Shown piece by piece: positions 10,035 through 63,592 of a stretch of DNA of 64,000 bases. Under the pieces are notes generated by a model, which did no database searches, was not told the origin of the DNA, and was given only the letters and a program-made list of their open reading frames with translations. Position 1 is the first letter of the stretch. The number at the start of each line of letters is the position of its first letter. The DNA is from a virus (Duplodnaviria > Caudoviricetes): positions 64,001-128,000 of the IMG/VR virus record IMGVR_UViG_2788499951_000002. The stretch is one strand, 5' to 3'. Position numbers and translations under genes: made by a program.

Positions 10035-10151
10035 ACCGAACCGTATATTTCTGCCCCAAGTGTCGAGATGACTGGGCTGGCAAGTACGACACAAACCACC
10101 GGTGCACCCACTGCGGTTCACCCATCCACACACGAACCGAGGGGAGGAAAG

Positions 10152-45290: not shown

Positions 45291-45308
45291 TAGTTCATCA
45301 GCACAAAG

Positions 45309-45335
45309 AAAGGGGAGCCATATGGCTCCCCTTTT
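45309..45335. terminator. bidirectional terminator between convergent gene blocks
   Basis: AAAGGGGAGCC-ATAT-GGCTCCCCTTTT. Confidence 0.85.
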
Positions 45336-46694: not shown

Positions 46695-47216
46695 TTATAA
46701 GTCGTCGATGGCGATTCGAAGTGTCAGTTCTTCCCATAAGCGCCGACGATCATCTTCACCGAAGAAGATGACGAGTGGGTCTCTGTCAGTCACACGCAGC
46801 TCCTTGATGATGTCACATCCGGTTTCAGGAAGAATCCCCATGTCCAAACAGAAAATAATCCTCTCGTTTTTCTCCCGTTCATACACCTCGATTACCACCA
46901 TTAGGCTCGGGATCGGGAGGTTCATCTCCAGCGTTGAGTCTATGAACACACAGATCGGTACGGCGTCTTCTAGGTGCCCCCAGAACACCTCCGCCCCATC
47001 CAGTATGTGCTCGGATATGATGTCCAATGTATCCGAACGCCCCTCCATTCCGGCGCGGTTCTTCCCCGCACTACTCACCCACGCATCGAGGCGACGAGTG
47101 AATGCATCTCTCACGGGTTGGGAGTCTCTGAAGCTCTTGTACGTCCCCCCAAACTTCTTACCCAACCAATCGTTGACTCCCATTTGGAGTGAATACTGCG
47201 GTGTGATAAGTTCCAT
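46695..47216 (-). CDS. C-terminal motif family, soluble (AIDDL*)
   Basis: Start MELITPQ after GAGG. Confidence 0.75.
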   Translation of the reverse strand: MELITPQYSLQMGVNDWLGKKFGGTYKSFRDSQPVRDAFTRRLDAWVSSAGKNRAGMEGRSDTLDIISEHILDGAEVFWGHLEDAVPICVFIDSTLEMNLPIPSLMVVIEVYEREKNERIIFCLDMGILPETGCDIIKELRVTDRDPLVIFFGEDDRRRLWEELTLRIAIDDL

Positions 47217-47223
47217 GGTGGCC

Positions 47224-47793
47224 TCACAGAGTGTCAAGTGCGATATGTTGAAGGAGGTTGTTGTGGATCTGTCGGGCATCATTCTCCCCGAGGAGAAACA
47301 GGATCCCAGACTCGAAGTCTTTCGTGGTGAACCGGTCAATGACACGCCTGACGTGTCCTATCGTATTGAATTCAACGTCGACAATGTTTTGACCGACACA
47401 GGTCATCTCTCCGGCACGGGTGATTCTGGGGTAGAGCAGGATCATATCAGGGGTGTCAAAGCGACCATGGCAGCTATCATGAAACGCGTCAATCACAATC
47501 GCATACGGGAGAACCTCATCATGGTGTGGGCTAGTCGGTGGATGGGATCCGATGTATGGGGTTTCATCGATAACAGCATCAAACACCTCGAACACCGAAC
47601 CAGTGACGTGTGGTGGGTTGATAGTCGTTTGAAACTCACTGTTCTCCCATTCGGAGAACATGTCGCTGATTTGGATGCGATGTGAATGTCGGGCGAACGT
47701 CTCATTATAGATGTCAGGTCGTTCTCTCACTGCTCTAGTCAGTGCGTCCGCAGTGAGTGGTTCCAAACACGGTGTCTCAAAGTAACGATTCAT
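47224..47793 (-). CDS. C-terminal motif family, soluble (ALDTL*)
   Basis: 189 aa, coupled. Confidence 0.75.
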   Translation of the reverse strand: MNRYFETPCLEPLTADALTRAVRERPDIYNETFARHSHRIQISDMFSEWENSEFQTTINPPHVTGSVFEVFDAVIDETPYIGSHPPTSPHHDEVLPYAIVIDAFHDSCHGRFDTPDMILLYPRITRAGEMTCVGQNIVDVEFNTIGHVRRVIDRFTTKDFESGILFLLGENDARQIHNNLLQHIALDTL

Positions 47794-48362
47794 AATTGCT
47801 CCAACGCGTGTTGTGTTTTGAGGTTGTCCATGAGTCTGACTCTATCATCATCTCCCAGCCAGATCAACATCGGGTTATCAACCGACCAACGCTCGATGTT
47901 GATCTGACTCAGTCGCTCCCTGTCTACCATGAACGACCTAGCTACGATCTGACCATCATTGGTCACCCCGAGGAGGACCGCGTCATGGCTGAGTTCAGAT
48001 ATTGACTCAGTGACATAAGGAGGGACTGCCATCCGGTCACTGATTATGAACATCGGGGCAAATTCACGCCCGTCACGAGTGACGACTGCATTATGAGTGT
48101 GCTCGGTGGTGAACTCGAGTAACTCTGGAACTCCGTCAGGCGCTGAGCGTTCCTTTCCGTTGGATTGCAACCATGGCATTGCATGGCGCTCGATCTGTTG
48201 CCGAACCACACTGTCATGGGAGACCCATGGGTATAGTCGATATGCACCCTGTATCGCGGTGACAATGGCGTCAATGAACATGTCAAACTTGACCTGATCA
48301 AATTCATCTTCCCCCATGAAGGGAATGCATGGTGATGACAGCATGTTATCGGTATTGAACAT
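47790..48362 (-). CDS. C-terminal motif family, soluble (ALEQL*)
   Basis: 190 aa. Confidence 0.75.
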   Translation of the reverse strand: MFNTDNMLSSPCIPFMGEDEFDQVKFDMFIDAIVTAIQGAYRLYPWVSHDSVVRQQIERHAMPWLQSNGKERSAPDGVPELLEFTTEHTHNAVVTRDGREFAPMFIISDRMAVPPYVTESISELSHDAVLLGVTNDGQIVARSFMVDRERLSQINIERWSVDNPMLIWLGDDDRVRLMDNLKTQHALEQL

Positions 48363-48371
48363 CTCAGACTC

Positions 48372-48941
48372 CTACAGTCGACTCAAGGCACGAATTTCAG
48401 CGAACATGTCATGAACCATATCAGATGTCTCTTCGTCTGTAAACAGAAAGAGAGCAATCCCGTCGTCACCAATGTCAATCTGCCCATTGATTAGCTTCTC
48501 GTGGAACTCCGAGTTGATGTGGACACTCTGTGACACCGCCACGTTAGCGAGCGCACAGTTTTCTGTGCCGTTCCCACGGAACGATGCGGTCAAGACACAC
48601 AGCTCCCAGTGCCCAACCCCCAGTGACTCCAGTTCGAACGAGCCAGCTGTACAGTCACAGAACACCCCGATGTTGCGGAAGGCGTTTTCGGGTGCAAGAT
48701 TGAGGTCATGACCCGACAGATGTGACCTCCATCCGCCCACAGGATCGGCAGCCATATTGATGAACTCTTCGAGGTCCATACCCTTCACAGTCGAAAATCC
48801 CCTGATGGGTCTGTCTTCGAACTGATACTTCAGAATCGGTGACATATACATGGCGACTGAGCTGGTCCAGTCGAGTGCCGACCATTGGCCTGCGATGACA
48901 GGAGAGGTATCGATGGCTCGTTGAACACTCGTATTAATCAT
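48372..48941 (-). CDS. C-terminal motif family, soluble (ALSRL*); paralog of 49568-50143
   Basis: FSTV.GM, RNIGVFCD, WE.CV, LFTD.E.SDMV. Confidence 0.8.
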   Translation of the reverse strand: MINTSVQRAIDTSPVIAGQWSALDWTSSVAMYMSPILKYQFEDRPIRGFSTVKGMDLEEFINMAADPVGGWRSHLSGHDLNLAPENAFRNIGVFCDCTAGSFELESLGVGHWELCVLTASFRGNGTENCALANVAVSQSVHINSEFHEKLINGQIDIGDDGIALFLFTDEETSDMVHDMFAEIRALSRL

Positions 48942-49558
48942 AGTGACTCCATGGCTTGTGTCAGATTGATGAAATGGATGATGTTGTCTGATTCCTCCTT
49001 AGAGAGAAACCGTATCAGCATCTCCGGATTGTTGAAATCGAAATCAGGAAGGAACTGAAGCATCTCATCTTTCGCATACGAAGATCCATATGTGACGGTC
49101 AGACCGATCCTGACTCCACCTTCGAACGTCGAGACATCCATACCCTCTCCCCACGGGGCGGAGTCGGCGTCTACCGGTGAATCAATCGCAATGATGAGGT
49201 TCAGGTAGTAGAGTACCGTCCCCTCTGCCGTATATCCCTCATCCTCATCAAACCCCAGATCGGTGATGACAGCGATGACACGAGCGTCGTCGAGTGCTTT
49301 TGTCAGTTCATGCATCGCGAATTCGCCACTGTTGGTGCTGAATATCGCGATGTCTTCCTCTGACATCGCATCCAAACCGCATGGCTTGGAATGCTCGAAC
49401 CCCGAATTCTTCCACTCGGTGAAGTGCTCTTGAAACGTATTTCGCACGGCGTGAAGACGGGAATCATCACGTCCACACCAGACCGTCATTGCATATGACG
49501 ATTGGACGGAGAATATCTCATGGTGGGACAGTAACTTGAGGCGTTCCTCATTGAACAT
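48938..49558 (-). CDS. C-terminal motif family, soluble (AMESL*); paralog of 50140-50769
   Basis: MF.E.RL, WK.SGF, D.GFD, PDFD.NNP..LIRFLS.EESD. Confidence 0.8.
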   Translation of the reverse strand: MFNEERLKLLSHHEIFSVQSSYAMTVWCGRDDSRLHAVRNTFQEHFTEWKNSGFEHSKPCGLDAMSEEDIAIFSTNSGEFAMHELTKALDDARVIAVITDLGFDEDEGYTAEGTVLYYLNLIIAIDSPVDADSAPWGEGMDVSTFEGGVRIGLTVTYGSSYAKDEMLQFLPDFDFNNPEMLIRFLSKEESDNIIHFINLTQAMESL

Positions 49559-49567
49559 CTCAGACTC

Positions 49568-50143
49568 CTACAGTTCGTTGATTGCTCTGATGTCAGAGAA
49601 GTGTTTACCCACCATATCAGATGCCTCTTTGTCTGTAAACAGGTAGAGTGCGATATGGTCCTCTCCGAGATCGATTCCACCTCCTCGCAGCGACTTCAAG
49701 AAGTCTACATTCGCGTATGTGGTTTGACTGATGAATACCTCGTTGATCACCATGGAGCCGGTTTTCTTGTTTCGTGTGGTCGCTGCGCTTATGACACAGA
49801 CTTCCCAAGTTTCATCGTTGACCATTGTGTAATTGAAATTAGACCGTGTGAAGTCACAGAACACGCCGATATTGCGGATGGTATCCGAGGGCATCGCGTT
49901 TATTAAGGATTCAGCGATTCTGACATTGGGACTACGCGTTGGGTCAATGCTCGCATTGAGGAAATCAGACAGAGACATCCCCTGAACGGTTGAGAATGTC
50001 CGCAGAATGCCATCACTGGTGTGGCGGCGCAGCGCAGATTCCATGTGAGTCTTTACCGAATCAGTCCAATTGTAGATCAGATGCTTCTCATTGAGCATAT
50101 TGAGAGAATCAATCAACGCTTGGGTGGCTGGGTTTGCTTTCAT
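49568..50143 (-). CDS. C-terminal motif family, soluble (AINEL*)
   Basis: Paralog of 48372-48941. Confidence 0.8.
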   Translation of the reverse strand: MKANPATQALIDSLNMLNEKHLIYNWTDSVKTHMESALRRHTSDGILRTFSTVQGMSLSDFLNASIDPTRSPNVRIAESLINAMPSDTIRNIGVFCDFTRSNFNYTMVNDETWEVCVISAATTRNKKTGSMVINEVFISQTTYANVDFLKSLRGGGIDLGEDHIALYLFTDKEASDMVGKHFSDIRAINEL

Positions 50144-50769
50144 AAGTCATCCATCGCAGTGGTGAGGATCAGGTATTCGATCAGGTGATCCGATTCCTCC
50201 CTAGAGAGAAACCGAATCAGAGGTATGGGGTTATTATGATCGAAATCTGGGAACAAGTCAACCATTTCCGACCAGCTCAACATGACGTCCCCATATGCAC
50301 TGGAGAGCTGTGATCTTATCCTATACCCATCATCATCGAACTCGTTTGATTGATCATAAAGTATCGACGGGACAACCTCATCATCAGAGTAATCCCCATG
50401 TGCGATCATCGCATTCAGGGGGTATCGACCGTTCTCCCCAGCGATGTCAAATCCGAAGTCACTGAGAAGGGCAATGATTCTCATCTTACTCAGTTGTGGT
50501 GGAGTGAACCCATACACGATATTCGCGATGCTCGTCGGTTGATTTGAATCCCCTGTTGTAAAGGTGTCATTCTTGATCAGACGGTCGAACCCACTGGGGA
50601 GGTCACATGAGAATCCAGACGCCTTCCAGTGTGCATAACGCTTATCGAATTCATCCACAAGGCATTGCGGGGGTTCAAGCAAGATCCCCCACGTGGTGAT
50701 ACCACTGCAGAGAAGGTGTTTGAAAATCTCATCTGCTGCTATCTCATTGAGTCGGCGTTCATCGAACAT
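50140..50769 (-). CDS. C-terminal motif family, soluble (AMDDL*)
   Basis: Paralog of 48938-49558. Confidence 0.8.
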   Translation of the reverse strand: MFDERRLNEIAADEIFKHLLCSGITTWGILLEPPQCLVDEFDKRYAHWKASGFSCDLPSGFDRLIKNDTFTTGDSNQPTSIANIVYGFTPPQLSKMRIIALLSDFGFDIAGENGRYPLNAMIAHGDYSDDEVVPSILYDQSNEFDDDGYRIRSQLSSAYGDVMLSWSEMVDLFPDFDHNNPIPLIRFLSREESDHLIEYLILTTAMDDL

Positions 50770-50770
50770 G

Positions 50771-51349
50771 TCAGAGTTCCCTCATGGCCACTGTCAGATC
50801 GTGGATTTCTGTCATCTGATTCTTCAGTTGGATGCCCTTGTCTTCAGGAATGAAGAACCAGACCGGTATATTCTCACCTTTGTTCAATTCAGCAGCCGAG
50901 GTGATGTGTTGAATGAGTTCCTCATGCAACCTGATACCTCGGAGGACATTCAGCTCATCAACCGCATATGTGAATTCCCCGTCACTGTCGACCGACTGCC
51001 AGATCACAGACAGTTCAGGGATATCATCATATCCTTCATCGGTCAATACGGCAAATACCCTCGACTTCTCATAGTCGAACCCACATGGGTAATATGATGT
51101 CTTCATCCAGCCGACATGACCCAAGATATCGTTGACACGCCTCGGGGACTCGTTTTCAAGTGAACACTCCCCCAGCAAGAAATCCGCCATGAGGTGGTCC
51201 TCACGGGTGTGTTTTTTCTCTGAAAAAACGGCAGATGCATGATCCTCGATCACATCGTACATCAGACTCACCGGAACGTAGACGGATGCCCTCCTTTCTG
51301 CCATGTAGATGAGTTCATAGACCTTCTGTATTATGACATCGTCCTGCAT
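50771..51349 (-). CDS. C-terminal motif family, soluble (AMREL*)
   Basis: Start MQDDVII in TGATG overlap. Confidence 0.75.
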   Translation of the reverse strand: MQDDVIIQKVYELIYMAERRASVYVPVSLMYDVIEDHASAVFSEKKHTREDHLMADFLLGECSLENESPRRVNDILGHVGWMKTSYYPCGFDYEKSRVFAVLTDEGYDDIPELSVIWQSVDSDGEFTYAVDELNVLRGIRLHEELIQHITSAAELNKGENIPVWFFIPEDKGIQLKNQMTEIHDLTVAMREL

Positions 51350-51894
51350 CACAATTCCTCCACGGCTAGACTCATGTGAATCGCATCTTTGACTGTGCGA
51401 TCCATGGCGGTTGATACAGAGAACCACTCGACGAATCGCTCTGGTGGTGTCGTTAGAACGCAAGGTTCACTCGGACGGTCTTTTGAATCCATCGAAGCGA
51501 TCATCTCGTGTAGCTTCCCACTGGTAACGAAACGAGTCAGTGTGAGTTCACCTTCATCCCGCCCAGTGAACACCAGAATGCTTTCGTTGGACCCTTGTCC
51601 GCCGTATTCACTCATGATCCCGACCAACACATATTCTGTCATGAGGCGATCACGGACCCCAATCATGTGGAGAAAATGAAGCAGGTCTTCTACCACACCA
51701 GCCAGATCGGCATCGATGAAACGGTCACCCGTCCCAACCTCAAGTGAGCCATTCTTCCCCTCAGAGATATCCCGCCGCATCACCTCGCGTTCATCCCATG
51801 TGATTCGGCTTAGAGCCATCTCGCTGATCGGTGAAGTGTGCCTCAGTATCTCGATGAAGTTGGTCATGGACTGATCACAGACTAGGCGCGTCAT
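51349..51894 (-). CDS. C-terminal motif family, soluble (AVEEL*); paralog of 51891-52469
   Basis: VG.GD.F, GI.SEYG..G.NE, EWFS.S. Confidence 0.78.
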   Translation of the reverse strand: MTRLVCDQSMTNFIEILRHTSPISEMALSRITWDEREVMRRDISEGKNGSLEVGTGDRFIDADLAGVVEDLLHFLHMIGVRDRLMTEYVLVGIMSEYGGQGSNESILVFTGRDEGELTLTRFVTSGKLHEMIASMDSKDRPSEPCVLTTPPERFVEWFSVSTAMDRTVKDAIHMSLAVEEL

Positions 51895-52469
51895 AATCCC
51901 TCCAATGCGATATACATGTGTACGTATTCGCTGAATTCCTGACCGGCGTCTTTAGAAATGGAGAACCATTCCGCATGTCGACGCTCGTTTATCGGTATGT
52001 CGGCCCACACTCTGCCAACTTGCGCAGTTCGGGGCTTGTCGTCCATCACCTCTATGATTGAATGAAGATGAGTATCCATAGTGAAGAGGTAAGATTCATC
52101 ACCAGTTTTGGTCGTGTCTCGCCAAATTATGACCGTCTCATTCAGCCCATACGGGCCGTACTCACTGATGATCCCGAACGGGAGTGCCTTGGCTGTGTCG
52201 ATACCCTCCTCGCGTTGGTATTCTTCACGGAGTCGATATACTAACGACGGGCGCACCTTGTGGTGCGTCTCAAGGAACTTGTCACCCGAACCAACCTTGA
52301 TTCCTTCCGGCGTATACAATTCATCAAGGGACACTGCGATCTCCTCGAACTGGCGAGTGATGATGATCTTTCGCATCGAATGCCAAGAGATAGAAGTCTC
52401 TACCTCTACATGCACCAGAAGCCTTTCGACGTCATCTCGAATGCCCGACGTACTGTCAAAAACTCTCAT
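51891..52469 (-). CDS. C-terminal motif family, soluble (ALEGL*)
   Basis: Start MRVFDST after GAGG. Confidence 0.78.
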   Translation of the reverse strand: MRVFDSTSGIRDDVERLLVHVEVETSISWHSMRKIIITRQFEEIAVSLDELYTPEGIKVGSGDKFLETHHKVRPSLVYRLREEYQREEGIDTAKALPFGIISEYGPYGLNETVIIWRDTTKTGDESYLFTMDTHLHSIIEVMDDKPRTAQVGRVWADIPINERRHAEWFSISKDAGQEFSEYVHMYIALEGL

Positions 52470-52473
52470 TCGT

Positions 52474-52881
52474 TCATCCTCTGTCTCGGTAGAATTCATG
52501 GGTACCGACAGCACCGACCATCTCGATCTTGCTGTAGTCCCACTGAGGTGTGACATAGTCTGCGTGATAGTAAAGCACATTCCCCATCAGAGGTCCAGCG
52601 TCAGTTGAGAGAACCGCATAGGCGGCTGCTTCTGCTTCACGTCGGGCCTTCTCGTTCGGCATGTCGAGACGCCCTGTGGCGATCTCAGTATTGCGGTACG
52701 AGAACTGGAAAGGCTGCTCAACCACGAGGCATGGGGTGTCTGGCCATCTCGGATCCAAGGTGCGATTATAGATGACTGCAGCCACTGCCACCATTCCAGA
52801 GAATCCCTCACCCCTTGCTTCGAAGTAGAGGGCTTCTGTCATGCATTCAAGTTGTGCCGCCATTACGAGTTCTGCAAACAT
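52474..52881 (-). CDS. cell wall hydrolase (SleB/Hydrolase_2 family)
   Basis: C..EALYFEARGE..G..AVA.VI.NR..P.WP...C.VV.QP.QFS, YYHADYV.P.W, G.H.FY. Confidence 0.92.
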   Translation of the reverse strand: MFAELVMAAQLECMTEALYFEARGEGFSGMVAVAAVIYNRTLDPRWPDTPCLVVEQPFQFSYRNTEIATGRLDMPNEKARREAEAAAYAVLSTDAGPLMGNVLYYHADYVTPQWDYSKIEMVGAVGTHEFYRDRG

Positions 52882-52907
52882 GGTGCTCTCTCCTGTTGTT
52901 TGATTGA

Positions 52908-52936
52908 ATCATACGTCAGACAGAGCACCATGTCAA
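52908..52936 (-). promoter_or_regulatory. sigma70-like early promoter inside the array
   Basis: TTGACA-17-TATGAT on the - strand. Confidence 0.8.
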
Positions 52937-52939
52937 CAC

Positions 52940-53422
52940 TCAAATTGACTCCATCGCGAGAGACATCTCCACATCGGGATGGTCGACGAATGACGCTGTG
53001 AGAAGTTTCACCGCCTCCTGTGTCTCAAGCCTGACGTAGTGTTTTCCCGCCTCACTGGACCCCTCTACGGTGAACCTGTCGGAAGAACCACGAACCCCAT
53101 GGGAGAAGAAAACGTTGCGGATGATAACCGAGTCCCCATCTGGTAGATGGCTCGGTGGTGGAACAGCACTCATTGTGACGGTTAACGTCTCTTCCATTGG
53201 ATCCCCGAATATCGCCTCAAGCGAAACACCCCAGTCATCCAGCAGTGCATACACACATGTTGAGCTTCCAATGGCATTCATGTATATGGTTCGGTCACCA
53301 TGTGGAGTTCCGTCGAGGATATATCGAAGCAGCCGCTCAATTGGAGGTGCGAGGACGATGTCACCCATCAAGATGGGCTTGTCTTCTGCCAGTAGTCTCA
53401 TGAAACGATCATAGTTCGACAT
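52940..53422 (-). CDS. C-terminal motif family, soluble (AMESI*)
   Basis: 160 aa. Confidence 0.75.
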   Translation of the reverse strand: MSNYDRFMRLLAEDKPILMGDIVLAPPIERLLRYILDGTPHGDRTIYMNAIGSSTCVYALLDDWGVSLEAIFGDPMEETLTVTMSAVPPPSHLPDGDSVIIRNVFFSHGVRGSSDRFTVEGSSEAGKHYVRLETQEAVKLLTASFVDHPDVEMSLAMESI

Positions 53423-54012
53423 TACAGTTGCTCCAGTGCGATTGAGTCGTTGATTATGTTGACAAACTGCATCGGGGCGACGGTAGTGCCGGTGACAACC
53501 CTGACATCGACATGGGTCGCCGCCTTAGGGTTACGGGAGAATGAATGCCCACCTCCCAACCTGCTCGCACCACGGGCGAGGATTCTCTGATTGCCCACGA
53601 CAGCGTTGAATAATACCTCGATTGAGTGGGGCAGTAGCTCGGATGTATCTGGATCGTGACAATGAACCGTCAGACACTTGATATGAACTCGTCCGGTGCG
53701 ACTAGGGACATACACCATCCGTGCCTTGACCGATGTCATGACAGCCATACCATTGACCTGAGACATCATGGGTGTCTCGGGTATCACGATCACGTCCATA
53801 TGGAGGTTGGCCCCGTAAGAAGCCCGAGGGATAACACTGTATCCTTCAGGGTTCTCAACGAACCCCCGCCATACTGAGAGGCCATCGGAGAGAAGCTTCA
53901 TCCCTTCGTGCCATTCCGAACGATACGGATCGTTCCACGTCGGTTTGTTTGATTCAAACGTATCCATTTCAACAATCCCATTGTTGGGGATCGGCGTGAT
54001 GATTGACGCCAT
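53422..54012 (-). CDS. C-terminal motif family, soluble (ALEQL*)
   Basis: 196 aa. Confidence 0.75.
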   Translation of the reverse strand: MASIITPIPNNGIVEMDTFESNKPTWNDPYRSEWHEGMKLLSDGLSVWRGFVENPEGYSVIPRASYGANLHMDVIVIPETPMMSQVNGMAVMTSVKARMVYVPSRTGRVHIKCLTVHCHDPDTSELLPHSIEVLFNAVVGNQRILARGASRLGGGHSFSRNPKAATHVDVRVVTGTTVAPMQFVNIINDSIALEQL

Positions 54013-54019
54013 GGTAACC

Positions 54020-54835
54020 TCACATTTTGTCGAGAGCGTGTTGGAATTTCAGATCTTCGAACTCCTGAGAGTCTTTGACCCAATCATAGCACAACATGTA
54101 GACATACCAAAGAACAAATTCGTTCATTTCGATCTGGCCGGAGAAATACTGACCATTCATCCCAACTCCGTCCATGTCGGCCAGTGACCGAGTGAAGAAC
54201 TCGTATGAGACATGATCAACATCGAGGAACATGAAGCGACTTTCGATCTCAATGAGGTGAGTGCTGCCGAACGGTACTTGATAGGTCATCTTGGTCGGCA
54301 TCAGCTGTTTCTTACCATTGACGTCCAATAAGCCGACCTCGTGAACCGTCGTGTTGTTCCTCAGCACGCTGGGGTCATCAAGAATACGCTTCACCCCAAC
54401 GCTGGTGTCGGATGTCACCCCATTCGGATCACTGGCGAGCAGTGAGACGGGTATCAAGAACAGGTGAATCATGACAGGGAGAAAACTATCATCCCTTGTC
54501 AACTCACCAGCCATGAGGAATGATGCCACAACGATGATCGCACCGACTGAAAGCGCCGCTGTTCCAATCTGGGTTGCTTTCATTCTGGGTATACATTCGA
54601 GACGATGACCCTTCACGGTGCAGGTGATAATGGTGATCATCAATGTAATCATAGCGATAGCACCGAGGGCTAATAACCGCACCCGCTCCGGTGTGGAGAA
54701 TCCGTCTATCACGATCAACAACGGAAGGAATGTGATTATGAGCAGTGTGGGAATCACTGCTGCCAACTTTCTTCTCCACCGGCGATGCAGCTGAATCGTG
54801 ATATGGTCTTCATCCGTCAGGTCGCGAAGGATCAT
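54020..54835 (-). CDS. C-terminal motif family, membrane (4 TM; ALDKM*)
   Basis: N-terminal hydrophobic helices, soluble C-domain. Confidence 0.75.
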   Translation of the reverse strand: MILRDLTDEDHITIQLHRRWRRKLAAVIPTLLIITFLPLLIVIDGFSTPERVRLLALGAIAMITLMITIITCTVKGHRLECIPRMKATQIGTAALSVGAIIVVASFLMAGELTRDDSFLPVMIHLFLIPVSLLASDPNGVTSDTSVGVKRILDDPSVLRNNTTVHEVGLLDVNGKKQLMPTKMTYQVPFGSTHLIEIESRFMFLDVDHVSYEFFTRSLADMDGVGMNGQYFSGQIEMNEFVLWYVYMLCYDWVKDSQEFEDLKFQHALDKM

Positions 54836-54844
54836 GTTGTCTCC

Positions 54845-55675
54845 TCAGATTTTTTCGATTGCGATGCGTTCTTGAGACACCATACCAGTGATGAGGGCAT
54901 GAATCAATTCGACGGAAGGCGCAGCACTCGATCCCCAGATGGACGCGGTTCTGAGATCCGCTGCATCGAATGCAGTTCGGGTCGAAATATCAGCGAGGAC
55001 ACTCGACTTGACCACATCTTCATCTGGCAGTTCAAATCGCAGACCACCCACATGGACAACCCCATGGAATTGATGGTCATTGATGATATTCGTCTTGGGA
55101 TTTCGTGCGACCATCTGGACCTTTGCTGTTGTTACAGCACCGTAATCCTCGATTTGAGTGGCGACCAGTCGTTCGATGTCACAATTGAATGATAGTTGGA
55201 GTGACCCACACTCAATGGTTGCGCTCGAGATCAGATGGACTGGCTTGTCTCCCACCCGAATGTCGGTTGTCTCAAGATGAGTCACTTCGAACTTCTTTGA
55301 GTCCCGCGTCAGGTACAGACGATATGCGATGACTTCAAGTCTGGACAGCGAGGTGTACTCCATCAGAGTCCTCATAAGCACCAATCCCATGAAGATGATA
55401 CCGAGGGACGCCAGACTTAACCCCACCACCGCGACTCCCAGAGGGCGATCATCTGATTCCATAAGTATCCCAGCATTGATTCCGTGCGTGATTGCCATCA
55501 CGGAGCCAAACAAGGAGGCCAGAATCAGCAGAACGAACGGGAGGCGTTTCTGGTAGATTCGCGCACGCTTTGCATCTTTCCACCGTCGGCGAGCAACCAG
55601 TGTCGGGGACATCCGGATGAAGTGGGCATGGAATCCGAGAAGGACGTTGTAAACAACATGGATGATGTAGTTCAT
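54845..55675 (-). CDS. C-terminal motif family, membrane (2 TM; AIEKI*); paralog of 55685-56500
   Basis: IH..I..MVS.E.IA tail shared. Confidence 0.78.
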   Translation of the reverse strand: MNYIIHVVYNVLLGFHAHFIRMSPTLVARRRWKDAKRARIYQKRLPFVLLILASLFGSVMAITHGINAGILMESDDRPLGVAVVGLSLASLGIIFMGLVLMRTLMEYTSLSRLEVIAYRLYLTRDSKKFEVTHLETTDIRVGDKPVHLISSATIECGSLQLSFNCDIERLVATQIEDYGAVTTAKVQMVARNPKTNIINDHQFHGVVHVGGLRFELPDEDVVKSSVLADISTRTAFDAADLRTASIWGSSAAPSVELIHALITGMVSQERIAIEKI

Positions 55676-55684
55676 TTCAAGACC

Positions 55685-56500
55685 TCAGAGCTGTGAGAGG
55701 GCGATGTGTTCCTCTGACACCATGTCAGAGATCATTGAGTGAATCGCGATGCAACGTGACGTACTGGTGTGTTTGAACCAAGCTTCCATCTGGTTTCCCA
55801 TGGGGAAGGCTTCACCATAGAGAGACGCGTTGATGCGGACGGATTGCCAGTCACTCCGAAGCACACCACCGTATGACTGGCCGTTGTAGACGATATCACC
55901 ACCCACCGATTTCGGCAAGTATTTGATGATGAGCTTGAAGTCAATCGGACCTGAGTTCGGGTGGCTACCATCTATCTGATCAATGATGATCTTGTCCACA
56001 TCGAGAAGGAAAGATACAGTCCGGATGCCGTCGTCGAGATCAACCCGAGAGATGATGGTGCGTATCTCATTGTTGACCTTTACCTTGGCCGTCCTGATGT
56101 TGGTGATCATGATTTCTCTCTTCTTGCGGGATCTCCACATGGAGTAGATGAGTGCCGCTGCCGAGTCGGTCCGGTTGCTCGGAAGTGCATGTTTGAATCC
56201 AAACAGTACGACCCCGATCCCAATCCCACCTATGAGGGAACCAAGTATGGCCAACTCAGGCACCACCGACCCACCGGCGTTACTCGGCCAATGTCCCCAT
56301 CCTACCCAAGTCCCCAGACCGATCAGGACGGATCCGAGGACTAGCATCGGGATCATCGGGAATGCCTTCAGTGTCTGCATGCGGTGTTGCCAGTGCCAAT
56401 CACTACTCAGTCCGAGTGGTGATCGCTTGAATCGCATTGCGCGGATGGACATACCAACACCCAGACAGAACATCTTGAGGGAGTTCATAAAAGATCTCAT
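55685..56500 (-). CDS. C-terminal motif family, membrane (2 TM; ALSQL*)
   Basis: 271 aa. Confidence 0.78.
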   Translation of the reverse strand: MRSFMNSLKMFCLGVGMSIRAMRFKRSPLGLSSDWHWQHRMQTLKAFPMIPMLVLGSVLIGLGTWVGWGHWPSNAGGSVVPELAILGSLIGGIGIGVVLFGFKHALPSNRTDSAAALIYSMWRSRKKREIMITNIRTAKVKVNNEIRTIISRVDLDDGIRTVSFLLDVDKIIIDQIDGSHPNSGPIDFKLIIKYLPKSVGGDIVYNGQSYGGVLRSDWQSVRINASLYGEAFPMGNQMEAWFKHTSTSRCIAIHSMISDMVSEEHIALSQL

Positions 56501-57357
56501 AAGTGCTCCAGTGCTATTTCATCAGAGAAGTCGATCTTGGATGCAAGCACCCACGTGATGAGAATATAGCCGATGTTGAGTGTGTTTTCAATCGACATTT
56601 TGTCCGTCTTGGATCTGGCACCCCATCCCCCCATGGATGACGTCGATACTCGTTCTTCCATGCTGACCTCGGTGGACAATGAGTACCGTGGCTTCACTTT
56701 TTCCGAACCGACCGACATCGACATGACTGACTGACGGACCCCCTTATCGCCGATTCCGATGAATGCCGGTGTGCTACCCGTGTCAATGAGTTCAAGTAGG
56801 CTGATCGGGTTCTTACCCCCACGTGATCTCGACATGCGAAGTGTCCATCTCCCGTCGAGCGTAATAGTCCCATCGACGGGAATGTGCATTACTTCGGGGT
56901 CTTCGCCGGTGCGATTGATTGTGAGGGTCTTGAACGTCACCCCGTCAACATCAATACGTGACTTGACTTCCTCTGCAGAGGTGGTCATTAGCCAGCGCAG
57001 CATCGAACGAATGCGCTCATCCGTTGCTTGGATCTGCTTGTTGGACTCTTGTTTTGGACGGAACTCACCAAGTGTGATACACAGCGCCAATGCATAAATG
57101 AGGGATGCAACCACAATGGTAACTCCGATGAACGCACAGACAACCTGCAGTCCGCTTCCGTCCGGTACATACATGATCATCCCAGTTATGGCGAGACCGC
57201 ATATGATCAACATTATCACCGAGTAGATACAGAACACCACATTATGACCATAGTACAACCCAACTTCGACCAGTTCCTCGAAGTCGGAGTCTCGGAGGTA
57301 CGGGATCTTGAGTTGTTCGATATTCCGCATGACTCGCCATGTTGTGAATATGTTCAT
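56497..57357 (-). CDS. C-terminal motif family, membrane (2 TM; ALEHL*)
   Basis: 286 aa. Confidence 0.75.
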   Translation of the reverse strand: MNIFTTWRVMRNIEQLKIPYLRDSDFEELVEVGLYYGHNVVFCIYSVIMLIICGLAITGMIMYVPDGSGLQVVCAFIGVTIVVASLIYALALCITLGEFRPKQESNKQIQATDERIRSMLRWLMTTSAEEVKSRIDVDGVTFKTLTINRTGEDPEVMHIPVDGTITLDGRWTLRMSRSRGGKNPISLLELIDTGSTPAFIGIGDKGVRQSVMSMSVGSEKVKPRYSLSTEVSMEERVSTSSMGGWGARSKTDKMSIENTLNIGYILITWVLASKIDFSDEIALEHL

Positions 57358-57364
57358 TGCTGCC

Positions 57365-58669
57365 TCACTTGATGATGTTGTTTGATTTAAGGGATTCTAG
57401 GTACAGACTAGCATCGTCCTTCCCGTAGAGCAATGCCTCATTCAAGAAGCACCCACGTCCACCGATGAACTCGGTAGAGGAGAAGTCGAACTCAGGGAAG
57501 ACACGTTCACTATAACGGCGGATGTCCTCACCGCTCAGATCCCCTACCTCAACGATTCGATCAATACGCCCCTTACGGGTGACAGCCGGATCAATCATCT
57601 CGAGATGGTTCGTAGTGAAGAACAGGATACAGTTGTCCAGAGGTACCACACCGTCCAGCACGTTCAGAACCCCACTGATAGTGAGTGGTGAGAAGTTCAT
57701 CAATGAGTCTCCCCCACTGCTGTTGACCTCTTCGCCACCCCCAGCGTTTCGATCATGAAACGCCTTGGACGAGTCAAAGTCCTCAATCACAACAACTGAG
57801 TTGGTCGGGACACTGTCCAGTGCTGCCTCGAATGTCTTGTCGGACAGGGTAGCCAGTGAGACAGTGCACAGGTTCATATTATAGTGAGAAGCGAGTGCAC
57901 GGATCAACGATGTTTTACCGGTTCCGGGCTGCCCATGCAAGATGAAGGCCAGTTTGTATGCCAGACTGTTGTCATAGTACCACCCACGCTGGTTCTTGAA
58001 GTGATCGATACATGAGGTGATCTCCTCGCGCATGGCGACCGGCATTGCAACAGACTCGAGGGGACGACGGGTGATGCGCTTGCTGCGCTCCCAATCCCCA
58101 TGCATGTCCATCTTGTAGACCGAGATCTTGTCATTGTCGTCGTCTTTCGGGGTGATTGAATCGAACAGCTCGGTGAAGATCGCATGGCGGCGTCCGAGCA
58201 TCGTCACGGTGATCTCTTCTTTCTGGCGCTCGGATCCGGATGAGTCCAACTTGTCCATGCGGATCCAGACCGGACGACCTCCCCAGAATGCAATATGATT
58301 ACCATACCCGAGGGAAACGGTAACGTGCTCCACGAACCGAGACAGATCACGGTCATAGGTTCGGGACGGGTTCACCGACTTTGAACGAGACAACCACTTC
58401 ACGGTGTGTTCCTCTGCCCACTCGAGGAATCGATTGTAGTTCTCCTGCTGTTCGAACCCTGCGTTGTTCAGAGTCAGAGTGGTGGTGGTCATGTGCTTGA
58501 TCTTTGCAAGCACTTTGGCTGGGATAGAGCGAGCTGCATACCCCACCCACGTAATAGCACCACCCCCGAGGATCCCCGCTAGGAATTCATTCCCATGAGT
58601 GGCTTCGTTGATGAATGCAGACCAAGCGGCTATTGCATCGCTGGCGTGTGTGATGAGTGATTCAATCAT
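57365..58669 (-). CDS. BCS1-like membrane-anchored AAA+ ATPase
   Basis: N-terminal TM (NEFLAGILGGG), G.H..F.G.P.W, RPLESV, WY....AYK, HGQPGTGKTS, IEDFD, SGVLNVLDG, TTNH...DPA..R.GRID. Confidence 0.88.
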   Translation of the reverse strand: MIESLITHASDAIAAWSAFINEATHGNEFLAGILGGGAITWVGYAARSIPAKVLAKIKHMTTTTLTLNNAGFEQQENYNRFLEWAEEHTVKWLSRSKSVNPSRTYDRDLSRFVEHVTVSLGYGNHIAFWGGRPVWIRMDKLDSSGSERQKEEITVTMLGRRHAIFTELFDSITPKDDDNDKISVYKMDMHGDWERSKRITRRPLESVAMPVAMREEITSCIDHFKNQRGWYYDNSLAYKLAFILHGQPGTGKTSLIRALASHYNMNLCTVSLATLSDKTFEAALDSVPTNSVVVIEDFDSSKAFHDRNAGGGEEVNSSGGDSLMNFSPLTISGVLNVLDGVVPLDNCILFFTTNHLEMIDPAVTRKGRIDRIVEVGDLSGEDIRRYSERVFPEFDFSSTEFIGGRGCFLNEALLYGKDDASLYLESLKSNNIIK

Positions 58670-58677
58670 GTTGTCTC

Positions 58678-59346
58678 CTAGAGGTCATGGAGGGCTGTGT
58701 TCATTCGGACATCATCAAGCCTATCAGATGTCAGGAAGAAATCAAGCAGCATTTCTATATGGGGTTGGTAGAATCGGCGATATATCACCGGATTGGTATA
58801 ATGTGGCAAGCTGTGTCCGAACCGGCACTCCCCACGGATCCCGAAGTAAACACGGGCACGATGTTCATGAACGGATGATATGCCGACATATGCAACAAGA
58901 GCCGCAATGGTCTGCATTCTACCGGTGGGGCCGACAATGGTGCATCGAATCGTCGCGAATCCATCAACTGGATGTATCGTGATATTGTTCTCGTGGAAGA
59001 TGTCATCGGGGTAGATCTTCGCCGTCAAGAAAGTCAGGATGCCCTCTTTGAGAGATCTGACCCCACGGTCGATGTCAGCCAACTCACTGACCTCACCTGA
59101 GAACAATCCCAGATTCGCAGATGACCAGAAGGTCAGGGCGGGGATCGCCGACATGAAAGACCCGAGCGCCAGTGGGATCCAGAACTCATATTCGTTCATC
59201 AATGCCCATATGAACCCACCCAGAGAGACAAAGACGATCAGTAGCCACACCACAGTATAAGCGATGTGTTTGACAAACATCCTCATCAGCCCTGCGTCTC
59301 TCATGACACCAAGATTCTTCAACGCCCATACGATTCCTCTGTTCAT
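58678..59346 (-). CDS. C-terminal motif family, membrane (2 TM; ALHDL*)
   Basis: Start MNRGIVW after AGGAG. Confidence 0.75.
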   Translation of the reverse strand: MNRGIVWALKNLGVMRDAGLMRMFVKHIAYTVVWLLIVFVSLGGFIWALMNEYEFWIPLALGSFMSAIPALTFWSSANLGLFSGEVSELADIDRGVRSLKEGILTFLTAKIYPDDIFHENNITIHPVDGFATIRCTIVGPTGRMQTIAALVAYVGISSVHEHRARVYFGIRGECRFGHSLPHYTNPVIYRRFYQPHIEMLLDFFLTSDRLDDVRMNTALHDL

Positions 59347-59347
59347 T

Positions 59348-60031
59348 TCATAACTCCTGCAGTGCAGCGACTTCCCGCATGTGTGGGTATTCCTCGGTGA
59401 CACGGCGTCCGAATGCATCCAGTTCCATCGCCAGAATCTCAACCTCGACCCTTGGGCAGATACCCCCACTAGCGGGTGGGTATATCCTTAGGCTCTTCAC
59501 CGTGTCAGACGTTCTGCTGATGAAGAGGTTATTCAGGAAAGCCAGCCAGCGCCGTGACCCTGTTTGCTCCTGCCATACCACATCCGACCGTTCTGTGTTT
59601 GTGCAGGAAATCCTGACCGTATCAGCATGGTGCATATCATGCATGGTGTCACATGTGAAGTCAACACCGCGTGTCATGTACCCACCGAAGTCAGAAACCG
59701 ACTGTAGGACACCATCTGAGGACCACTCAAGCAGTGCGCCACACGGTTGAAGCTCTCGGGGATGAAGCATCGAGAGATCACCCGTGAGATTGGGGATGTC
59801 ATTGAATGATGAGTTCAACAGTTCCCGTGTTCTCAGACGAGATAGATGAGCATGGATCAGGGACGCAATACAGACTCCCAGCGGGAACAGAGGAGGCAGG
59901 ACGATATATCCCCACCCACCGAGCCCGAGTATGGAAACAGCTGCAGAGATGCCGATTGCCCCGAATATACAGTTCGGAAGACGCTCTCTGACCTCTCGTT
60001 TCATCTGAATCACATACGGATGTGTCATCAA
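59348..60031 (-). CDS. C-terminal motif family, membrane (2 TM; ALQEL*)
   Basis: 227 aa. Confidence 0.75.
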   Translation of the reverse strand: MMTHPYVIQMKREVRERLPNCIFGAIGISAAVSILGLGGWGYIVLPPLFPLGVCIASLIHAHLSRLRTRELLNSSFNDIPNLTGDLSMLHPRELQPCGALLEWSSDGVLQSVSDFGGYMTRGVDFTCDTMHDMHHADTVRISCTNTERSDVVWQEQTGSRRWLAFLNNLFISRTSDTVKSLRIYPPASGGICPRVEVEILAMELDAFGRRVTEEYPHMREVAALQEL

Positions 60032-60306: not shown

Positions 60307-61686
60307 TTACCCGAGGAGGATCAGTTCGTCAACCTTCTCAGAAGAGTCGGCCTCGAACTTGTCTGTACGCACCTCGATGATGCGAGGGAGGTAGAACTTA
60401 CCGGCAGCCGTCAGACGGTGGAATCGAACCGCCACGATGGTCCCGACCAGTGCACCTTGAGAGTGAAGCTCAAACATCTTGGCACGCTGTTCTTCATTCA
60501 GGCCAGAACCGATTGAGCCACTGTACTTGCCGTCGGATGTTTCGATGGTCAGGGAACCAATGTCCTTGTCCGAACCCTTCATCAGGCGTGCATCAGTGAT
60601 CACCAGATCGCAGTCAGTCTGGATCTTCACCTTGATCCAATCCTTGGACTTCTTGGTCACATAGAGGGAATCGAGGTTCTTGATGACCACACCCTCTTCT
60701 CCTTCTTGGCGCATGATGCTGAAGTACTCATCAACCTCTTCCTTCGACTCGGCGATGATCCCATCAACAGGAATGATCGCACACTTCTCGAAGAAACCGG
60801 CATACACGAGGCGCTTCTTCAGCGGTGTTGAGTCGACCCCGATGCGGAGTTGATTGGCACTGCTGAGGCAGTCGAAGACGTAGAATCGCATGCGTGATTC
60901 TTCCTCCTCAGTCAGGTTCCCTTTGAGTGCCTTACTGGCCAGACCATTGGTTGTCTCACGGGGCAGACGCTTACCATGCTCGTCAAGGAAGATGATCTCA
61001 CCGTCGAGGGTGAAGCCGTCATACAGCTCACTTGCATAGTAAGAACGGAACTCCTCAAGGGACGGGATCAGGTTACCGGTCTGCTTCAGTTCTGCACCTG
61101 AGGAACTACGGACCTTGACACCGCCGTCTCGGGTACATTCGATCACACCACGATACCCATCCATCTTCATCTCGACACGAGCCGGATACTTGATGGAGTC
61201 GATGTTGGTTGCATCGTATGCCTTCATGACCTTGAATGTCGGGATCAGATCCTTCCATACCTTGTTGATGGTCGAGGCGGTTGCACCGATGAGGAGGTCA
61301 CGTGCGATTGCACGTTCAAGGAACGCATATTCCTCAGATGTCGCATGAGTCTTCACTGCCAGACCCAGAGCCGCAATCGAGGATTTGACCATACCATAGT
61401 CAGCCTTCTGCATGCCCAGAGAGATGATGGTACCGGCGATGGCATCAGAGGCATCCCCAATTTCATCGAACGGGTTGGTATTGGTGATACGCTCTACCAC
61501 CTCATCATCGAGGACAGACGGGTGCGGGATAGTGCGGATATGGAGATTCACGAACGGGTCATGAATCACAGAGAGGAACGTCTTGAGTTGGTCATTGGCT
61601 GAATACTCGTTCAGAACTACAATCTTGGCCTTCGGACCATTGGCATTACGAACATCGTTGAGGATGGAGAGGATGGTGGTTGACAT
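60307..61686 (-). CDS. ATP-dependent DNA ligase
   Basis: EMKMDGYR, LDGEI, FYVFD, EGVVIK, WIKVK, GSGL, YLPR...R.DK. Confidence 0.93.
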   Translation of the reverse strand: MSTTILSILNDVRNANGPKAKIVVLNEYSANDQLKTFLSVIHDPFVNLHIRTIPHPSVLDDEVVERITNTNPFDEIGDASDAIAGTIISLGMQKADYGMVKSSIAALGLAVKTHATSEEYAFLERAIARDLLIGATASTINKVWKDLIPTFKVMKAYDATNIDSIKYPARVEMKMDGYRGVIECTRDGGVKVRSSSGAELKQTGNLIPSLEEFRSYYASELYDGFTLDGEIIFLDEHGKRLPRETTNGLASKALKGNLTEEEESRMRFYVFDCLSSANQLRIGVDSTPLKKRLVYAGFFEKCAIIPVDGIIAESKEEVDEYFSIMRQEGEEGVVIKNLDSLYVTKKSKDWIKVKIQTDCDLVITDARLMKGSDKDIGSLTIETSDGKYSGSIGSGLNEEQRAKMFELHSQGALVGTIVAVRFHRLTAAGKFYLPRIIEVRTDKFEADSSEKVDELILLG

Positions 61687-61941: not shown

Positions 61942-62865
61942 CTACCCGATTTGGAACAGCTCCTTGGCCGTCTGTCGTTTCATCGAGGTCGTGTCCCAGC
62001 CCATCGCGGACATATAACTGTCGATCTTCTTCTTCGCAGCCTGCCACATCGCCTTATCATCAACTGCAATCGTGTCCATGAATGCCGGTAGGTTGTTGAT
62101 ATCAATGGGGAATGCCATGTACTTACCTTTCGGGTGTCTGATATTGAACACACCGATCTTGTCCCCTGCTCGGATCTTCTTGTCCATGGGTCCACACATT
62201 GAGTTGTAGAGCATGGCCGCCTTCACCTGATACGGGATGTTCTTCACCTTCCCCATCGCAAGTGCATCCTCGTACTTCTTCAGACCCTTGCAGGAGATCG
62301 GACGTGCGGTGTCTCGGATGTCGTACTCGAGATATCGCTTCCTCATCTTCTGAGTCTCCTGACGAAGTGTCTCTCGGTCGGCACCATTCAGTGCGGACTT
62401 GACCAGTTCTAGCAGGAGTTCTTTCACCGCCTTGGGGACGTCTGACTTCTTGAGTTCGACACCGGTGATCTTCAACTTGTCACACGGATCGCCTTCATTG
62501 TTGATCACATGCATGACATAGCGTTTCTTGGACAAGAACAATGATCTGTCAGACACAACCTCTCGGTCAGTCTGGATGATCTGATCACGTTCTTTCGGTG
62601 CATTGAATGCGAACCGTACGTATTCAGGGAACAGTGCATTGACTTCCTGACCGATGGCATCAGCAACATCCACGACCAAGTCCTTGTCCTCGAATTCATC
62701 AGGGAAGACACGGGCGAGATTGACAAATGCAGAATCTGTGTCCCCGCCTGTTAAGTTTTGTAACCATTTCTTCTCATACCGCCATACCCCATCATCGCCC
62801 TTGGTCCAGTTCCACACACTGTTCGGGCGTTCTGGGTCATCGAAATCTGGATATCGTTCACTCAT
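61942..62865 (-). CDS. family B DNA polymerase, C-terminal subunit (split gene)
   Basis: GDTDS (motif C), DRE, KKRY, LKITGVELKKSD.P, GDKI; own RBS GAGGAG; motifs A/B absent. Confidence 0.88.
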   Translation of the reverse strand: MSERYPDFDDPERPNSVWNWTKGDDGVWRYEKKWLQNLTGGDTDSAFVNLARVFPDEFEDKDLVVDVADAIGQEVNALFPEYVRFAFNAPKERDQIIQTDREVVSDRSLFLSKKRYVMHVINNEGDPCDKLKITGVELKKSDVPKAVKELLLELVKSALNGADRETLRQETQKMRKRYLEYDIRDTARPISCKGLKKYEDALAMGKVKNIPYQVKAAMLYNSMCGPMDKKIRAGDKIGVFNIRHPKGKYMAFPIDINNLPAFMDTIAVDDKAMWQAAKKKIDSYMSAMGWDTTSMKRQTAKELFQIG

Positions 62866-62877
62866 GTTTGTTTTCTC

Positions 62878-63592
62878 CTCTTAGGACTGACCATTTATCA
62901 TCGTACCACACATGAGAAAGGATCCCAACCTCTCGATTGGGATCCTCTGTTGGTGTTACTTCTTTCTGCCATGGAGTGGGTTGAATCCTAGCTCCCTGAG
63001 TTGTCTGAATCGAGCGGCAGCGGCGTCCAGAAGGGTATCACAACGCTCATGTCGCGCAGCGGTCGAAGAACCATTGGCATACGTCTTGGCGATCCACTTA
63101 CCACTTCGCTTGCAGTATGACACACCACTCAGCCCAATCGCATTATCAGACCTCAGCCGGACGTTCTTCTGATTATCGGCATAGCTGGCGAGCTGGAGAT
63201 TGTCCCACCGGTTATTGGTGGGATCCTGATCAATGTGGTCGATCAACTCGGGCGGCCACTCACCGGTCATCAGAACCCATGCGAGACGGTGAGCCAGCAC
63301 CTTGCTTTTGACCATCGGAAGGCGGACCTCGATCCGATAGTAATCACGGTTCTTCACCTTGCGCTTACCACCCGCCACCGTCCCTGCATATCGCCGGTTG
63401 AACTGGTTTGCGCCATTGACTGTCCAGTGCTCACTGACTGTCTTTCGTTTCTTCCAGATGAGATCACCAGTCTCAGGGTTATAGTCCAGCAACTCTCTGA
63501 CCTGTTCGACAGGTATTTCGATTCGTTCTTTAGCCATGATGTGTCTCCTTTTGTTGGCTGTTGGTTCACTTTCCTCTCTTAGGACTAACCAT
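62878..63592. repeat. 17-bp direct repeats flanking the HNH gene (62878-62894 and 63576-63592)
   Basis: CTCTTAGGACT(G/A)ACCAT, 16/17 identical. Confidence 0.75.
62956..63537 (-). CDS. HNH homing endonuclease (with AP2-like C-terminus)
   Basis: LDYNPETG.L.WK, AHRLAW...GEWP..IDHIDQD..NNRWDNL, N..G..GV..KW.A. Confidence 0.9.
   Translation of the reverse strand: MAKERIEIPVEQVRELLDYNPETGDLIWKKRKTVSEHWTVNGANQFNRRYAGTVAGGKRKVKNRDYYRIEVRLPMVKSKVLAHRLAWVLMTGEWPPELIDHIDQDPTNNRWDNLQLASYADNQKNVRLRSDNAIGLSGVSYCKRSGKWIAKTYANGSSTAARHERCDTLLDAAAARFRQLRELGFNPLHGRKK

Follow-up and report, generated by a model that had tools for sequence, protein, structure and literature searches.

Why should so many proteins of one phage, long and short, end in nearly the same five residues? 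This question is raised by a gene array at positions 46,695 to 60,031 of the stretch of DNA analyzed here (64,000 nucleotides, henceforth the window), which corresponds to bases 64001-128000 of a viral contig of 157,856 bp with direct terminal repeats (IMG/VR record IMGVR_UViG_2788499951_000002). An initial annotation, made from the letters of the window, had proposed that 18 of 20 consecutive genes in this array end in the motif A-[LMIV]-x-x-[LIM] followed directly by a stop codon, and that the two exceptions are recognizable enzymes. Both observations hold. All 18 ends were found again on the minus strand at the same coordinates, and the two untagged genes encode a hydrolase (PF07486) and an ATPase with BCS1_N and AAA domains. 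In the following, it is argued that this C-terminal tail is kept by selection on the protein and that it may be recognized by a single common partner.

The phage carrying the array is an uncultured marine T4-like virus whose head genes are of the T4 type (Gp23 major capsid protein, Gp20 portal, and S77 prohead protease). It is also present in marine metagenomes of nine studies. Its nearest cultured relatives are the Alishewanella phages Slickus01 and Slicko01, the major capsid protein being 64.5% identical.

A C-terminal motif enriched across the genome

Genes were taken from an unbiased greedy set of 218 open reading frames (ORFs), to which five ORFs that the filter had lost to longer ORFs on the opposite strand were restored, giving 223. 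An independent gene call, made on another assembly of the same phage, contains the same 20 consecutive array genes. According to this call, five of the tagged genes (numbered g01 to g18 along the window), namely g01, g08, g10, g17, and g18, have starts that make them shorter than the longest ORFs.

Scoring the last five residues of all genes, a check that the initial annotation had suggested, reveals a strong enrichment. The tagged end is present on 29 of the 218 ORFs of the greedy set and on 34 of the 223 after restoration, that is, on about one gene in seven, whereas only 0.63 such ends are expected from the internal per-position frequency of the pattern (0.0028; binomial P 2e-47). The motif is also bound to its position, with 34 matches at offset 0 from the C-terminus and between zero and two at every other offset. 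Moreover, Ala occupies position -5 in 34 of the 43 ORFs that end in [LMIV]xx[LIM], as against 7% before internal matches. The background rate is low, as a single ORF among 1441 from 79 other T4-like viral contigs has this end. The enrichment is highly non-random and larger than first reported. Neither the recognizable core genes nor the enzymes carry the motif, as had been claimed, and the tag is limited to unrecognizable accessory genes.

Selection at the level of the protein

A shared end of this sort could in principle be imposed by the nucleotide sequence. If the Shine-Dalgarno sequence and the start of the next gene were contained in the last codons of the preceding one (xTG GAG nnn TTA TGA), a hydrophobic-E-x-L ending would result. 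Part of the data agrees with this possibility: some 14 genes have a final Leu codon whose third base, an A, stands directly before TGA and so gives an ATGA overlap, and codons -4 and -3 are often xTG GAG, which places GGAG five bases before the next ATG. Nevertheless, around half of the tagged genes carry the motif even though the ribosome-binding site (RBS) follows their stop codon, and untagged genes with the same four-nucleotide overlaps have other ends. A last codon of the form NNA would permit 13 other residues, so that Leu is not forced, and Ala at -5 is left unexplained. In addition, Leu at -1 is encoded by TTA or CTA in 14 of 28 cases, whereas these codons account for 2% and 4%, respectively, of Leu codons genome-wide. 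These rare codons occur at overlaps between the stop and the ATG of the following gene; Leu is therefore retained there at a codon cost. Given the RBS position in half of the genes, the Ala at -5, the freedom of NNA, and this cost, translational coupling does not explain the motif. A cause at the nucleotide level is very unlikely, having been largely refuted already by the members that do not overlap. The initial annotation had deduced conservation of the protein from varied codons and the use of all three stops, and rightly so, as codons vary at every position of the motif and all three stops are in use. The motif is under protein-level selection.

Variation between strains

The comparison with close-strain contigs of run X9, whose orthologues are 64-100% identical, shows how this selection is distributed. 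Between strains, the ratio of non-synonymous to synonymous polymorphism (pN/pS) is 0.2-0.46 in tagged genes (1.28 in one of them), compared with 0.05 in the ATPase and 0.10 in the hydrolase. Within the tagged genes, the last 26 codons are more constrained (0.17) than the bodies (0.35), the tail having a significant deficit of non-synonymous changes (P 5e-4). Those changes that do occur in the tail remain in class. For instance, AIDDL of g01 is AVEDI in an orthologue that is 66% identical, ALEQL of g03 is ALEHL in one that is 76% identical, ALSQL of g15 is ALSRL in a strain variant, and AVEDI also changes to ALEDI. An orthologue that is just 64% identical has its last 12 residues unchanged, and a gene that ends in TMEGM here ends in AMEGM in the other strain. 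In a strain variant of g01, the N-terminal part is replaced by 200 diverged letters (window 46986-47163), while the tail keeps the motif. One apparent loss of the tag, in a strain variant of g16 (window 56560 region), was discarded: a difference of one nucleotide in the length of an A-run shifts the frame, and this is probably an assembly error because the tail codons downstream are unchanged.

Whole tagged genes are also gained and lost between strains. In the close strain of run X9, an insert of 566 nt lies between g11 and the hydrolase gene, and its 165-aa product ends in ALETL. This gene occurs in three runs (X9, X4, and X5) from three studies, with inserts of 566-586 nt at the site that corresponds to window positions 52882-52929. 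No homologue of the 165-aa protein was found in the present genome.

Bodies of the tagged proteins

The bodies had been described as very divergent. For g01-g10 this goes too far, as they are a single diverged tandem family of paralogues of about 190 aa (family A), to which the other tagged proteins show no likeness. All on the minus strand, the members of family A are g01 (46695-47216, 173 aa, ending in AIDDL), g02 (47224-47793, 189 aa, ALDTL), g03 (47790-48362, 190 aa, ALEQL), g04 (48372-48941, 189 aa, ALSRL), g05 (48938-49558, 206 aa, AMESL), g06 (49568-50143, 191 aa, AINEL), g07 (50140-50769, 209 aa, AMDDL), g08 (50771-51349, 192 aa, AMREL), g09 (51349-51894, 181 aa, AVEEL), and g10 (51891-52469, 192 aa, ALEGL). 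Paralogy is directly detectable for the pairs g04/g06 (37%), g05/g07 (31%), g09/g10, and g01/g03, with E values from 1e-41 to 1e-5, as well as for g14/g15 further along the array. The pair g07-g06 arose from g05-g04 by duplication of both genes together. The remaining relationships within family A are weaker and depend on collinear motifs, namely W-x-x-S-G-F and R-h-h-A-h-h-T-D-x-G-F-D, located near residues 50 and 95, respectively; cross-pairs reach z 3.9-5.9 at the same positions. In an alignment of 13 family A sequences, the sole invariant column is Ala -5.

The tagged proteins outside family A have bodies of 57-286 aa with zero to four hydrophobic segments. In the array, again on the minus strand, they begin with g11 (52940-53422, 160 aa, AMESI), which is without likeness to family A, and g12 (53422-54012, 196 aa, ALEQL). 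Six proteins with one to four hydrophobic segments flank the ATPase: g13 (54020-54835, 271 aa, four segments, ALDKM), g14 (54845-55675, 276 aa, two segments, AIEKI), g15 (55685-56500, 271 aa, two segments, ALSQL), g16 (56497-57357, 286 aa, two segments, ALEHL), g17 (58678-59346, 222 aa, one segment, ALHDL), and g18 (59348-60028, 226 aa, two segments, ALQEL). Small proteins of 57-76 aa are also among the tagged proteins outside family A. A family A profile detects its own members and their strain orthologues and, at its limited sensitivity, no other tagged protein, and hhalign gives a probability of 0.2% for g04/g06 against g05/g07. Thus, within this sensitivity, no single family appears to cover all 34 tagged proteins, and the same end is present on at least 15 protein groups without detectable mutual likeness.

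Structure prediction adds little to this picture. AlphaFold2 models are poor (pLDDT 35 for g04 with g06 and 54 for a 73-aa tagged protein), and a look-up in the ESM Atlas with g04 gave no usable match. For g12, an Atlas model has a weak beta-rich likeness (TM about 0.5) in its body, the last 29 residues being left out.

The searches for relatives were likewise negative. Pfam and PHROGs contain no family for any tagged protein. No relative was found for g04 or the 13-sequence family A profile among 5.8 billion proteins (word-indexed), for g04/g06 among 1.84 billion representatives (exhaustive HMMER), or for five tagged proteins among 50,697 phage records (tblastn), and IMG/VR scans with g04/g06 and with the ATPase gave no matches. 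Judging from these searches, the tagged proteins seem to have no relative outside this phage population, the nearest phages included. The initial annotation knew of no described phage system like this one, and none turned up in Pfam, PHROGs, PDB sequences, or the literature searched.

Related phages

In Slickus01, a homologue exists for none of the 34 tagged genes, compared with 68 of the 189 untagged ones (Fisher P 2e-6), and the accessory genes of Slickus01 have no shared end of their own. A different situation is found in the related viral contig IMGVR_UViG_3300009194_000007 (G001; 65% complete, capsid protein 63% identical), which is syntenic with the present phage over the replication genes. 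At the positions of tagged genes, plus two further places, G001 has 12 accessory genes (L018:4412-12811) for proteins of 118-200 aa, which are scattered between conserved replication genes. All of these end in Leu, with varied Leu codons and mostly a hydrophobic residue at -4, and none has Ala at -5 (for example, IKLLDL, NRLQEL, and YRMKRL). The end therefore characterizes accessory genes in some members of the clade, each genome having its own variant. As far as the two sequences can tell, Ala at -5 is genome-wide here and absent genome-wide in G001.

Shape of the tail

The likeness of the tails extends beyond the positions by which they were selected. An acidic residue is found at -3 in 62% of tagged and 15% of untagged ends, and a hydrophobic one at -10 in 74% and 35%, respectively, neither position having been used for selection. 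Gly and Pro make up 2.8% of positions -1 to -20 in tagged C-termini and 10% in untagged ones. In tagged C-termini, this stretch is preceded by a residue of turn-like character (-21) and, before that, by a run of hydrophobic residues (-22 to -26). The initial annotation had spoken of an amphipathic helix. In this respect it went too far: the hydrophobic moment of the tagged helix is no higher than that of untagged ends, and only the low content of Gly and Pro is distinctive.

A possible recognition element and its candidate partners

What could such an end be for? The explanation preferred here, which is given about an even chance, is that the tail serves for recognition by one common partner. 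The array belongs to a set of lineage-specific accessory genes, about 35-40 in number and fast-evolving. The last helical turn and the free carboxyl end of their products would be the selected recognition element. Through it, the variable bodies would be coupled to the partner as adaptors, cargo, or substrates. Three variants of this scheme may be considered, each about as probable as the others: the tagged proteins could be adaptors that bring targets to a hub, or the tail could be a sorting or loading signal, or a turnover signal. Both the existence of a tail-binding partner and its identity are inferred.

Two phage proteins are candidates. The first is the untagged BCS1-like AAA+ ATPase (434 aa; 57365-58669, minus strand), which lies in the array, flanked by the six tagged membrane proteins, and is strongly constrained. 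Its BCS1_N domain (PF08740, 51 bits) precedes an AAA domain (PF00004, 60 bits), both scores exceeding the cut-off, and it matches phrog_7485 with E 2e-109. For phage homologues of BCS1, a role in moving folded proteins has been the subject of published speculation (PMC7824862). The second candidate is a ClpP-family protease of 370 aa (PF00574, 49 bits) encoded outside the window, in the replication/early region (genome 138251-139363; L009:12251-13363, minus strand), two genes from a tagged gene. This protease is additional to the S77 prohead protease of the T4 type, and the phage was not found to encode an unfoldase that has a ClpP-docking loop. Neither the ATPase nor the protease has a homologue in Slickus01 or in the 65% of G001 that is covered. 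Both are thus best regarded as lineage-specific candidate partners, with a host protein being equally possible. In a more specific proposal, A-hydrophobic-x-x-Leu-COOH would address proteins to a protein-handling machine encoded by the phage, in which the ATPase, the ClpP-family protease, or both would read the tag. The ATPase would be anchored by the adjoining tagged membrane proteins, and some 35 exchangeable modules would act as adaptors delivering host targets or as cargo that is moved or loaded. In this detailed form the proposal is unlikely.

Several observations weigh against a common partner. Firstly, the content of Gly and Pro at positions -21 to -40 is 10%, which is the background level, and hence no flexible linker sets the tail off. 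The helix instead runs on from a hydrophobic strand, as a structural helix would, so that the term "free" used for it in the initial annotation has to be given up, there being no linker rich in Gly, Pro, or Ser. Secondly, the 30 residues before the last five score only slightly above those of untagged ends (P 0.002, by position-specific scoring in which the last five residues were masked and subfamilies held out). From this weak upstream likeness and the missing linker it follows that conservation is essentially confined to the final turn of a helix that continues from the body. Thirdly, ten of the 18 array proteins have the end by descent, and the sharing is therefore partly inherited through tandem duplication. 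Tight gene packing alone could also hold exact termination. Finally, no shared tails occur near seven other BCS1-like ATPases (31-40% identical; neighborhoods of phiTE, KASIA, fENko-Kae01, and four metagenome contigs), which makes the link to the ATPase lineage-specific at best, and G001 has Leu-ending arrays yet no ATPase or ClpP-like match in its covered 65%.

Some of these points agree with a purely structural origin of the motif. In this case, the tagged proteins would be remote paralogues, or would share a small closing element made of a strand and a helix, with the last turn packed on the protein's own body and no common partner; the exact end would come from head-to-tail gene packing, in which extensions and truncations are selected against. 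Besides the absent linker and the hydrophobic strand before the helix, the collinear body motifs of g01-g10 (z up to 5.9) fit such an origin, as do the detectable paralogue pairs in other tagged groups, the uniform sizes within groups, and the four-nucleotide start/stop overlaps in family A. Nevertheless, conservation peaks in the last five residues, which are usually the least constrained part of a fold, and the preceding 30 are barely alike between groups. Small proteins (57 aa) and large membrane proteins (286 aa) both bear the tag, with no profile similarity between them, and so does the product of the unrelated strain-specific gene. The fixation of Ala -5 throughout this genome and its absence throughout that of G001 also speak against a structural origin. 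As the main rival to the recognition element, such an origin is possible, but somewhat unlikely.

It may also be considered that the tails bind each other, so that the strand-helix modules form a mixed oligomer in which soluble members are recruited to membrane members, with no separate reader. The duplication of g05-g04 as a unit into g07-g06 would be in line with this, one operon contains both soluble and membrane-anchored forms, and hydrophobic residues at -1, -4, -7/-8, -10, and -14 fit a packing face. This arrangement is nonetheless quite improbable, because the hydrophobic moment does not exceed that of untagged ends and just one turn is conserved. A recognition element for a common partner remains the preferred explanation.

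Organization of the array and other tagged genes

The second untagged gene of the array (52474-52881, minus strand) encodes a cell-wall hydrolase of 135 aa of the Hydrolase_2/SleB type, assigned to the endolysins in PHROG. Its match to PF07486 (E 4e-20, 72.7 bits) spans profile positions 1-100 of 100 and is therefore full-length. Near this gene, at 52908-52936 on the minus strand, there is a match to a sigma-70-type promoter, TTGACA-17-TATGAT, that agrees with the consensus at 11 of 12 positions and is a consensus match only. Of the sigma70 promoters invoked in the initial annotation, this near-consensus site stands, but promoter-like sites overall are not above shuffles (27 compared with 19.4, sd 4.6). 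Together with the orientation shared with the replication genes, the match suggests that the array is transcribed with them. In an RNA-library run (X20), eight short contigs fall on the array, with DNA carry-over as a possible source. The leftward gene block has a two-way terminator-like hairpin (45308-45335) at its downstream end.

Other tagged genes are distributed over the genome. Three of them (AMVQL, ALGDL, and AMCSL; 9477-11305, plus strand) are inserted amid conserved replication genes, two more (AIIRL and ALWRL) lie at 21331-22147 on the plus strand, and further ones are outside the window, at genome positions 129155-134548 and 140239-140832. A GroES-like gene (phrog_3188; window 11317-11625, plus strand) has tagged or near-tagged genes on both sides, and the same layout occurs in G001. 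At genome 133014-134330 (L009:7014-8330, minus strand), within a chain of four-nucleotide overlaps with small tagged genes, a protein of 438 aa has an N-terminal dATP/dGTP diphosphohydrolase domain (PF18909, E 3e-19), which hints at nucleotide-pool or DNA-modification chemistry. A looser form of the tail is seen in a three-gene array adjoining the terminase region (genome 55614-57098; L007, minus strand), which encodes acidic proteins of 154-168 aa ending in ALDLL, ITDSL, and ILDTL. Separately from the tagged genes, there are four dispersed paralogues (E down to 1e-49), with no function assigned, at window 62956-63537 and at genome 5910-6692, 144785-145420, and 156824-157606; one of them sits in the terminal repeat region.

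Comparison with known systems

If the tail is a recognition element, about 13% of the coding capacity of this phage would be devoted to interchangeable proteins that plug into one partner, and finding the reader would give the role of dozens of orphan genes together. A simple screen for end-motif enrichment among accessory genes could be applied to the genomes of other phages, and the variant that G001 has of its own suggests a phenomenon not confined to a single genome.

The closest parallel comes from the same virus superfamily. In T4, a short hydrophobic/acidic C-terminal motif docks the otherwise unrelated proteins gp43, gp55, and gp33 on one hub, the sliding clamp (PMC2988020). In the T4 record, gp43 ends in SLDFLFG and gp55 in SLDFLYEAND, and the T4 pattern small-L-acid-x-L resembles A-L-E-x-L. 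In contrast, the T4 epitope is limited to three core proteins, has aromatic residues, and is attached by a flexible linker in gp55, whereas the tag described here is on at least 34 accessory proteins and has neither aromatics nor linker. The aromatic pair of S-L-D-F-L-F/Y occurs in none of the 34 tails, and an epitope of the T4 type was rejected. In this phage, the DNA ligase (window 60307-61686, minus strand) ends in DELILLG and a DNA polymerase piece (window 61942-62865, minus strand) in KELFQIG, both of which resemble the SLDFLFG of gp43. This type of end (ELILLG/ELFQIG) is probably the real clamp-binding motif of the phage, distinct from the tag, and since the polymerase piece and the ligase end in this different, T4-like motif, the tag is probably not a clamp motif. 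Searches with Pfam models and T4 queries did not find the clamp, gp55, or gp33 in this phage. A beta-clamp motif (QLxLF) and a membrane-targeting helix were dropped as readings, as the sequences do not fit.

Short terminal signals also sort proteins into shells. The internal proteins of T4 are a hypervariable, dispensable set with a common short terminal sequence that is read by the prohead core. This capsid targeting sequence is N-terminal, is cut by gp21 after L/I-x-E, and is present on few proteins; it was reportedly described by Mullaney and Black in 1996 and by Repoila et al. in 1994. In the tagged set, by contrast, some members are membrane proteins, and the genes follow a match to a sigma-70-type promoter. 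A capsid targeting sequence was rejected here, given that the motif keeps strictly to the C-terminus (0 matches at residues 2-6) and that positions -5 to -3 read A-hydrophobic-E instead of L/I-x-E. In encapsulins and bacterial microcompartments, unrelated cargo proteins carry a short peptide or an amphipathic helix at one terminus, which a shell protein reads. These cargo-loading and encapsulation peptides have flexible linkers and other consensus sequences, and we know of no such compartment for this phage. A short linear motif attached by a linker, such as the SSB tail or an encapsulin cargo peptide, is likewise rejected by the background level of Gly and Pro before the tail and the lack of a linker rich in Gly, Ser, or Pro.

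Degradation systems offer two further comparisons. The ssrA tag (…YALAA) is read at the free C-terminus and contains Ala-Leu, and the phage encodes the ClpP-family protease mentioned above. The tails described here, however, finish in x-x-Leu instead of LAA, positions -2 and -3 being acidic. An ssrA-like ClpX degron was rejected because all of them end in x-x-[LIM] and not in L-A-A-COOH, with position -3 acidic in 62%. In poxviruses, the ankyrin/PRANC (F-box-like) families are large, fast-evolving, and arranged in tandem, and combine a variable target-binding body with a C-terminal helical element that docks on a degradation hub. Poxvirus PRANC proteins belong to the eukaryotic ubiquitin system and have a domain of 40 residues and recognizable repeats, so that the analogy with the tagged array is one of logic only. 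A layout in which many interchangeable bodies share one terminal element is, to our knowledge, known from the host-range families of poxviruses and from the internal proteins of T4, and not as a C-terminal tag in phages.

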